64,000 bases of DNA from Escherichia coli. GTDB taxonomy: Bacteria; Pseudomonadota; Gammaproteobacteria; Enterobacterales; Enterobacteriaceae. The stretch is from assembly GCF_051903065.1 (NCBI RefSeq), contig NZ_CP178438.1. One strand, 5' to 3'. Position 1 is the first letter of the stretch, and each line of letters begins with the position of its first letter. Positions 25,116 to 26,839 of the stretch are shown piece by piece. Under the pieces are notes generated by a model. It saw nothing but the letters and a program-made list of their open reading frames with translations. It did not search any database and was not told where the DNA came from. Made by a program: the position numbers and the translations under genes.

Positions 25116-26438
25116 TTACTTAATACCGTATTCTCGGCTTAACCGACCGTGCAACCTCAACACATTGGTTTCAACTGCCGTCACCACGTTCTCTGGAAAA
25201 TCTGTCGGTAATGAAGTCTTCACGTTATCCAGTGCTGCCGGAATCATTCTGGCAAAGTCACTCAGGATTTCATGCATCTGCACTTCCGGGAATCTCAGCA
25301 CCTTTGCTGTCGCCAAAAAATGTCGCGGATAAATTTTATCGATTGCCGTTTTTTTGCCTTTGGATGCGTTAAGCCCCATTGCCAGTTTGAGATCGCTGAT
25401 GTGTATTCCCGCGCCACCCAATACCGGAAATGCTGAAATGATGTCGTAAAATGGCGTGAGTCGATAACTGCCGCCAGCCTGAATAAATACGGAGAAGTTT
25501 TTTGCATGGCCATCCGTTGCGCCAATCAACCACTGAAAGACCTGGAATTTCATAAAATCATAGCGATCTTTCAGCGCCTCGCTGGACCCCATCAAAAAAG
25601 CCATGATCCGCGCGATGCCTGGGCCTCCATCTGATTCATATTTCACCGATGAAGGTAAACCGAATGTCTGACACATATCCTCCTGTGGCAAGCGAAGTAA
25701 AACCGTTCGCTCAGCATTCCAACGCCTGTCAAAACGTTCGACCGCTAACGCGCGCACATTTCCCGCTTTAATGATTTCTGCGTCCGGAACATTCAACCCA
25801 AGTTCTTTCGCCAGCAGCAGACAGTAATACTCATTATCAACGCTTTGGCTGAGATCGAGCGTCGCATTGGGCTGCCTGATTTCCCCAATCGGTAATTTAA
25901 TGATGTGCGTCGTCGGCGTTATTCCTTTCGGAATGCACCAGTCATTGCCTATTCTGAGCAGTGCTGTCTTCTCCTGTGCGCCAGCAACCGAGATGCGAAA
26001 GTCATTTTCTTCTCTAATCATGCCTAGCGGGATATCTGCTTTATAAGCCGTTAATACTTCTTCAAGTCTGGCTTCAGTAAGCTTTTCCCATGCCATTATC
26101 GGACGCGTTACGGTTTCGTCTTCGGGTATTAACGTCACGGCACCAACGCTGTCTCGCCCTATTTCTGACAATAAATCAAACGGTTGTCTGGATTTGGCAT
26201 GATAACGTTTAACGATCCGGTCACGTACAATCGGGCTATCGGGTAACAAGTTATCGAAGAAGTTAAATACGGCATCAGAGGTGATATTCCCCCTCTGCAA
26301 TGGCAGCGAAAGTGACAACGGTCTGGCATAACGGCTGGCTAACCACTCCGGTGCATACTTAAAGGTGTGCGCGCCGTTGGCTAACTTCGTTAACTCGCCT
26401 ACCCGCTGGTTGTTCATCCAAGTGACTAGTTTGGGCAT
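25116..26438 (-). CDS. hipA: HipA Ser/Thr kinase toxin (type II TA)
   Basis: Matches HipA from MPKLVTWMNNQRVGELTK (440 aa); Gly22 is wild type; start overlaps the hipB stop by 1 nt. Confidence 0.95.
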   Translation of the reverse strand: MPKLVTWMNNQRVGELTKLANGAHTFKYAPEWLASRYARPLSLSLPLQRGNITSDAVFNFFDNLLPDSPIVRDRIVKRYHAKSRQPFDLLSEIGRDSVGAVTLIPEDETVTRPIMAWEKLTEARLEEVLTAYKADIPLGMIREENDFRISVAGAQEKTALLRIGNDWCIPKGITPTTHIIKLPIGEIRQPNATLDLSQSVDNEYYCLLLAKELGLNVPDAEIIKAGNVRALAVERFDRRWNAERTVLLRLPQEDMCQTFGLPSSVKYESDGGPGIARIMAFLMGSSEALKDRYDFMKFQVFQWLIGATDGHAKNFSVFIQAGGSYRLTPFYDIISAFPVLGGAGIHISDLKLAMGLNASKGKKTAIDKIYPRHFLATAKVLRFPEVQMHEILSDFARMIPAALDNVKTSLPTDFPENVVTAVETNVLRLHGRLSREYGIK

Positions 26439-26704
26439 TACCACTCCAGATCTTGCTGTTCTGTTGATTCTGGCGAGGCATTTTTCGTGTCGCATAGCGT
26501 CATTGAGAGTTCAAGCGACTGTAAAATCTTAAAAAATGTCGTGAGCGTGGTATTGTCAGGGTTGTTTTCGAAATTGGAAATCGTCGCCTGCTTAATGCCG
26601 ATTTTTTTCGCCAGCTCGCTCTGCGTCCAGCCATTTTGCTGGCGAACCAGTTTCATTGCATTCGCTAATTGCGTTGGGCTATAGATCTTCTGAAAGCTCA
26701 TCAT
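26438..26704 (-). CDS. hipB: HipB antitoxin (Xre-type HTH)
   Basis: 88 aa from MMSFQKIYSPTQL; HTH; translationally coupled to hipA. Confidence 0.95.
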   Translation of the reverse strand: MMSFQKIYSPTQLANAMKLVRQQNGWTQSELAKKIGIKQATISNFENNPDNTTLTTFFKILQSLELSMTLCDTKNASPESTEQQDLEW

Positions 26705-26725
26705 GTCATACGTCCACAGCAAATT

Positions 26726-26839
26726 TATCCGCTTAAGGGGATATTATCAGTTTTATCCTTTAGTAAGGATAAAGTCAATCTGGAAACACATCTTATCCGC
26801 TGTACGGGATAAACGCTGCGATATCCGCGATCGCGGATA
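26726..26839. promoter_or_regulatory. hipBA promoter with four HipB operators (TATCC-N8-GGATA)
   Basis: Exact TATCC-N8-GGATA palindromes at 26726-26743, 26754-26771, 26794-26811 and 26822-26839. Confidence 0.85.

Follow-up and report, generated by a model that had tools for sequence, protein, structure and literature searches.

The hipBA operon, the founding locus in persistence, occurs in almost every Escherichia coli genome; the described form closest to the one analysed here is that of strain K-12 MG1655 (b1507/b1508). There, HipB dimers bind cooperatively to four operators and so repress their operon, HipA serving as co-repressor (PMC3920265, PMC3376134). On the DNA, HipA's N-terminal domains dimerise and occlude the active sites, an arrangement that is weakened by the substitutions G22S, P86L and D88N (PMC7758455). 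Free HipA phosphorylates GltX on Ser239, which leads through RelA to (p)ppGpp and to a stop of growth (PMC3920265, PMC3376134, PMC7758455), and HipA is turned off when it autophosphorylates Ser150, by which the Gly-rich loop is ejected (PMC7758455, PMC10627512); PMC8262856 is a further source on the mechanism of the two proteins. HipB ends in a disordered C-terminal tail of 16 residues that is a degradation tag for Lon, free HipB being a Lon substrate (PMC3376134). Deletion of wild-type hipBA has no phenotype, and the role of the operon in persistence is debated (PMC3376134, PMC8725577).

Two kinds of variation on this system have been described. High-persistence alleles of the same gene, hipA7 among them, are changed at positions 22, 86, 88 and 291 of HipA (PMC3376134; PMC7758455; PMC12321266). 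The hipBST module of E. coli O127:H6 also pairs a Hip-family kinase with an HTH partner, and its target is TrpS rather than GltX (PMC7758455).

The stretch of DNA analysed here, which we call the window, is 64,000 nucleotides of E. coli sequence. It contains what is almost certainly the standard chromosomal hipBA operon of the species, wild-type and in its usual genomic place. The gene hipA occupies positions 25116..26438 on the minus strand and codes for a Ser/Thr kinase toxin of 440 amino acids, as identified by alignment with K-12, by matches in PDB and Pfam, and by the RefSeq name hipA on identical DNA. On the same strand, hipB occupies positions 26438..26704 and codes for an HTH (Cro/Xre-type) antitoxin and autorepressor of 88 amino acids, identified by alignment with K-12, Pfam and NCBIfam. 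Both reading frames are full length, with neither frameshift nor internal stop, and RefSeq calls the identical DNA hipA and hipB, intact and not pseudogenes, with an ECSE_1600-family autotransporter gene alongside. A first-pass annotation of the window had proposed a HipBA type II toxin-antitoxin module in the interval 25116-26839, with a one-nucleotide overlap of the two genes and four exact palindromes upstream. The module is confirmed by the 99% identity of HipA to K-12, by the equivalog match of HipB and by the RefSeq names; the interval is exact, its two ends being the hipA stop and the final base of the fourth operator; the overlap and the palindromes, detailed below, are also there.

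The operon resembles that of K-12 in locus, gene order, protein lengths, overlap of the two genes, operator half-sites and flanking genes. It differs in six residues, in the gap between the second and third operators, in spacer bases of these two operators, in a -10-like hexamer and in a 13-bp stretch of the control region, and in most of these points it is K-12 that is unusual. The likeness to hipBST is more limited: the kinase of the window is full length and has its N-terminal subdomain, a separate hipS is lacking, and the module has two genes, with HipB as its antitoxin.

The order of genes around the operon is that of K-12, namely ydeP, the ydeQ-type fimbrial genes, yneL, hipA, hipB, yneO and lsrK. 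The operon is flanked on both sides by pseudogenes, a yneL fragment and an autotransporter gene disrupted by IS1. Of 5,426 complete E. coli genomes, 5,421 match a query of 2.1 kb covering the hipBA region, with at least 80% of the query present in 4,551 of them and 100% identity in three. Compared to K-12, there are 27 nucleotide differences across the 1,589 bp of the hipBA coding region. The hipBA genes of the window are already known, and their annotation is correct but ordinary, with little significance beyond that correctness.

The two genes meet at base 26438, which is common to the TAA stop of hipB and the ATG start of hipA, so that the junction reads TAATG. The translation of hipB (MMSFQKIY...LEW) runs from 26704 to 26438; hipA proper (MPKLVTWMNN..., with its ATG at 26438) is nested in a longer open reading frame of 459 codons, at 25116-26495. 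A Shine-Dalgarno-like GGAG for hipA lies in the 3' end of hipB (26444..26447, minus strand), 5 nt before the junction, and this motif, together with the overlap, would fit a translational coupling of hipB and hipA. Downstream of hipA, some 110 nt from its stop codon, a terminator-like hairpin with a T-rich tail behind it (24988..25006, minus strand) is a tentative candidate for the end of the operon. A scan of the whole window with Rfam gave no match in or near hipBA.

Upstream of hipB, a search for the pattern TATCC-N8-GGATA yields four exact sites between 26726 and 26839, which we number according to the O1O2 oligonucleotide sequence given in PMC3376134, with O1 nearest hipB; they are given without strand. 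Operator O1 (26726..26743, TATCCCCTTAAGCGGATA on the sense strand) is 21 bp upstream of the ATG. Operators O2 (26754..26771, sense strand TATCCTTACTAAAGGATA) and O3 (26794..26811, sense strand TATCCCGTACAGCGGATA) each differ from K-12 at one base of the N8 spacer, and operator O4 (26822..26839, TATCCGCGATCGCGGATA), whose 18 bp form a perfect palindrome centred on GATC, is the same as in K-12. All eight half-sites are identical in the alignment of the window with K-12. The pattern occurs five times in the whole window, the fifth exact site being at 21016-21033, against a chance expectation, estimated with dinucleotide-preserving shuffles of the window, of 0.04 sites per window on average and never five. 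The operators are separated by gaps of 10, 22 and 10 bp in the window, compared to the 10, 21 and 10 bp published for K-12 (PMC4150777).

The HipA protein of the window is identical to that of K-12 at 436 of 440 positions (99%), without gaps, and the only differences are H112R, T343A, S424T and S439I. Eight solved HipA chains in PDB match it at 99% identity, with E-values below 1e-293, and Pfam recognises both the HipA_C domain (176 bits) and, at residues 6-103, the N-terminal subdomain Couple_hipA (95.7 bits). Residues G22, P86, D88, S150, A152, K157, K181, D291, D309, H311, N314 and D332 are all as in K-12, and the Gly-rich loop is unchanged, as are residues 150-157, residue 181, residues 309-314 and residue 332. 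Among these, D309 has a catalytic role in HipA and D332 a metal-binding one. At position 309, the PDB chains 3dnt, 5k98 and 3hzi have a Q, which we take to be D309Q, an engineered inactive form of HipA; the HipA of the window has D. The alignment was also searched for substitutions that would inactivate the active site of the kinase: there are none, and Ser150, the Gly-rich loop, D309 and D332 are all intact.

The HipB protein is identical to that of K-12 at 86 of 88 positions, and its two differences, A73T and N85D, are both in the disordered C-terminal tail. It matches the HipB equivalog of NCBIfam (NF007271) with 184.5 bits, for a cut-off of 79, and is also matched by Pfam HTH_3. The tail, residues 73-88, is present, and Trp88 is kept. 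The protein is RefSeq WP_001296726.1, and of nine strains checked, six have this allele.

The status of these six substitutions can be judged by comparison with other natural strains. We translated the hipBA genes of strains S40, ES7, EC42405, FEX669 and RIVM_C039629, picked along the similarity ranking. Of the states found in the window, R112 is present in three of these five strains, A343 in two, T424 in all five and I439 in three; on the side of HipB, T73 is present in four and D85 in all five, and the HipB of the window is annotated unchanged in four of the five as well as in strain 23CRST027. Different combinations of the four HipA states recur in unrelated natural strains. The six substitutions, four in HipA and two in HipB, are all common natural polymorphisms, and at several of the positions it is K-12 that has the minority state.

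This comparison bears on two ways in which the operon could depart from the wild type. The four differences between its HipA and that of K-12 could be taken as the mark of a high-persistence, gain-of-function allele, in the manner of hipA7 or of the clinical alleles P86L and D88N. This has next to no chance of being right: G22, P86, D88 and D291 are all wild-type residues, so that the gene carries none of the substitutions G22S and D291A of hipA7, nor P86L, nor D88N; the states R112, A343, T424 and I439 recur in unrelated natural strains; and none of the four differences is among the substitutions listed in PMC7758455 and PMC12321266. The first-pass annotation had read HipA as wild type from its Gly22, and alignment with the K-12 protein agrees, finding both Gly22 and Asp291, with P86 and D88 also unchanged. 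One could conversely suspect a decayed remnant of hipBA, with a toxin or an antitoxin that no longer works, in view of the two neighbouring pseudogenes and of the fact that wild-type hipBA can be dispensed with in the laboratory. We consider decay very unlikely, since the open reading frames are full length, the functional residues named above are kept, the operators are exact, the substitutions are common polymorphisms, and RefSeq calls the genes intact. The reading that stands is that of an ordinary, wild-type operon. Since its allele is wild type, hipA gives no reason to expect a raised antibiotic tolerance and, on account of residues G22, P86, D88 and D291, we would predict that, with regard to hipA, the strain has ordinary persister frequencies.

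A third alternative concerns not the state of the operon but its origin. Two copies of IS1 are present in the window, both on the plus strand and neither of them part of the module: the left copy (14555..15322) is in the 3' end of ydeP, and the right copy (31959..32726) is in the yneO-type autotransporter gene. They have the same orientation, differ at one of 768-770 positions, and hipBA lies within the 16,636 bp that separate them. It is therefore tempting to see in this arrangement a Tn9-type composite transposon of 18.2 kb (14555-32726), in which two directly repeated IS1 surround a block of genes, that would have brought hipBA here as cargo. This idea is extremely improbable. The inner block is native and in its normal place: ydeP, the fimbrial genes, yneL, hipAB and yneO follow each other as in K-12 and in strain 23CRST027, and the GC content of hipBA, 0.476, is that of the window, 0.476. 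Over 42 kb, strain 23CRST027 and the window are 99.98-99.997% identical, and this strain does not have the left IS1. The left copy has a 9-bp target duplication of its own, CCATGCGGC, and is therefore a simple insertion. At the right copy there is no duplication, and 204 bp are replaced with respect to K-12. Outside the pair, the flank on one side does not match that on the other, nor do the flanks share the target duplication expected of a Tn9-type composite. No other chromosomal or plasmid site was seen that holds the same IS1-flanked unit of 18 kb with a 9-bp duplication at the outer ends.

The distribution of the junctions also argues against a common arrival of the two copies. In the 5,426 complete E. 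coli genomes searched, the left junction was found in none and is private to the strain of the window; the query for the right junction is covered at 80% or more in five records, and two of these only, strains 23CRST027 and 23CRST031, match it without a break. The two insertions must therefore have had different histories. We conclude that each IS1 copy was inserted independently into a native chromosome and that IS1 did not bring hipBA, which is native to its place. The first-pass annotation, which placed the module inside an IS1-bracketed segment, is right about the geometry; as a unit of delivery, the segment does not survive the native K-12 gene order and the separate insertions. The left insertion cuts ydeP to an open reading frame of 709 amino acids, the intact gene being 2,280 bp long, or about 759 codons. 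As a weaker possibility, the direct repeats could recombine, making the block of 16.6 kb deletable, or mobile as a Tn9-like unit; neither a deletion nor a movement of the block is evident in the present data.

Having settled on a native and wild-type operon, we can ask how it would work. By analogy with K-12, the HipB dimer of the window would bind the operators, which overlap the promoter, and together with HipA would shut down its own operon, the complex of HipA, HipB and DNA keeping HipA inactive. The disordered tail would make free HipB a substrate of Lon, the tail probably acting as the Lon tag in this strain as well. HipA that escapes would phosphorylate the glutamyl-tRNA synthetase GltX on Ser239; uncharged tRNA-Glu would then build up, RelA would make (p)ppGpp, and growth arrest and multidrug tolerance would follow, HipA finally inactivating itself by autophosphorylation of Ser150. 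Each of these biochemical steps is carried over from K-12 on the likeness of the sequences, which are 98-99% identical, and on the same grounds the operon of the window probably resembles that of K-12 in kinase activity, toxicity, neutralisation and repression. This allele would be expected to contribute little to tolerance, given that the deletion of hipBA has no phenotype (PMC3376134, PMC8725577).

We now turn to the control region. Between O2 and O1, and overlapping the first base of O1, the minus strand reads GATAAT (26743..26748), a hexamer that may play the role of a -10 box; in the alignment, K-12 reads TATAAT at this point. Between O3 and O2, the hexamer TTGACT (26773..26778, minus strand) may likewise play the role of a -35 box. 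The two are separated by 24 nt, which is too wide for a standard promoter, and an alternative pairing of hexamers is TTGACT, 17 nt, then TAAAAC. A simple scan for the sigma-70 consensus finds no promoter match in the control region, be it that of the window or that of K-12. The window has one extra T compared to K-12, between TTGAC and O2, and it is this base that widens the gap between O2 and O3 to 22 bp.

The last difference is found just upstream of O4, where K-12 has a stretch of 13 bp that is absent from the window. This stretch carries the only match of the region to the IHF core consensus, CATCAACGCCTTA. Two reviews, PMC7167474 (on the basis of Black et al. 1994) and PMC3376134, describe IHF as binding upstream of the hipBA promoter and raising its activity. 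We take the consensus match of K-12 to be probably the IHF site that has been mapped. Since the O2-O3 gap, the hexamer GATAAT and the missing stretch all differ from K-12, the expression level of the operon in the window, and any effect of IHF on it, may differ as well.

Such differences suggest a rare or meaningful promoter variant, defined by the missing 13 bp, the extra T and the change from T to G in the -10-like hexamer. We considered this candidate and rejected it: both a search of the species and an alignment of seven sequences give these as common states, with K-12 as the outlier. In the search, the 210-bp intergenic region of the window used as query gave 2,760 records with at least 95% identity, 2,227 between 90 and 95%, and 255 between 80 and 90%. 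Records of the K-12 type are at 90.1-90.5% identity, and the K-12 length, 219-222 bp, is found in about a third of 40 evenly spaced matches. In the alignment of the window with six reference strains, GATAAT is present in six of the seven sequences; the extra T is present in five, and with it the 22-bp gap (the window and four of the six reference strains); and the 13-bp stretch is present in K-12 only. All seven sequences have four exact operators: these are the invariant part of the control region, and upstream of O4 lies a stretch rich in insertions and deletions.

The control region of the window is thus a common natural form, and K-12 does not have the commonest one in the hexamer, in the O2-O3 spacing or in the IHF stretch, an observation that is mildly useful to specialists. 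One might go further and conjecture that K-12 is an atypical reference for hipBA, and that typical E. coli strains express or autoregulate the operon in a measurably different way, for example without activation by IHF, or with the complexes on O1-O2 and on O3-O4 in a different phase. We hold this to be unlikely. All work on hipBA regulation, and all structures of complexes on the promoter, rest on K-12.

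When the hipBA control region is aligned across seven strains, the window and six reference strains, K-12 appears as the atypical one: it reads TATAAT where the others read GATAAT, and it alone carries a 13-bp stretch that contains a match to the IHF consensus (CATCAACGCCTTA). The gap between the HipB operators O2 and O3 measures 21 bp in K-12 and in one other aligned strain, and 22 bp in most. Operator O4 (26822-26839) has the same sequence in all seven: it is a perfect 18-bp palindrome, whose central GATC is a Dam methylation site.

The interval from O4 to the stop codon of the autotransporter gene, at 26840-26914, is indel-rich across E. 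coli, as judged from the six reference loci (L002-L007). A strong hairpin is predicted here on the minus strand, at 26866-26900 (-25.7 kcal/mol for the 55-nt stretch that was folded), between the autotransporter stop codon, which it directly follows, and the hipBA control region downstream. This hairpin is probably the terminator of the autotransporter gene, in which case it would shield hipBA from read-through.

Two E. coli O157:H7 genomes, NZ_CP017438.1 and NZ_CP028603.1 (hits H63 and H64), match the control region over its promoter-distal half only, positions 96-210 of the query, and the feature annotated under both matches is a HipA-family toxin. The half-match, together with this annotation, suggests that the hipBA locus of O157:H7 is rearranged or partly deleted.

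The window holds a fifth exact match to TATCC-N8-GGATA, TATCCTGCGACCTGGATA, at 21016-21033, inside the fimbrial usher ORF; by chance, 0.04 such sites are expected in the whole window. K-12 (5055-5072 of its locus, L002) and strain 23CRST027 also carry this candidate HipB site, which is 8 bp away from the endpoint of a 3.3-kb deletion in K-12. The fimbrial operon adjoining hipA is complete in the window, with a chaperone, a FimA-like major subunit and a full usher of 883 amino acids (19815-22466, minus strand), whereas K-12 has lost 3.3 kb of it, the equivalent of window 21042-24320, and is left with a truncated ydeT.

The two IS1 copies that bracket hipBA have different junctions. The copy at 14555-15322 lies within the 3' end of ydeP, which encodes an acid-resistance oxidoreductase, and is flanked by a 9-bp target duplication, CCATGCGGC; the interrupted ORF has 709 amino acids instead of about 759. 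A search of 5,426 complete E. coli genomes found its junction with ydeP in none of them, and the insertion is therefore private to the source strain. The copy at 31959-32726, in the interior of a yneO/ECSE_1600-type autotransporter gene, has no target duplication and substitutes for 204 bp of K-12 sequence. The autotransporter-IS1 junction is a single unbroken match in strains 23CRST027 and 23CRST031, both from human faeces in Ecuador, and is covered to at least 80% in three more records.

Between lsrG and tam, at about 42175-43816, the RefSeq annotation of a near-identical strain (37276-38917 of its locus, L001) places an IS200/IS605 tnpA that is partial, together with an intact TnpB/InsQ gene. 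The only match in an Rfam scan of the window is the Hfq-binding sRNA STnc560, at full length (59792-60005, minus strand; 281.9 bits).
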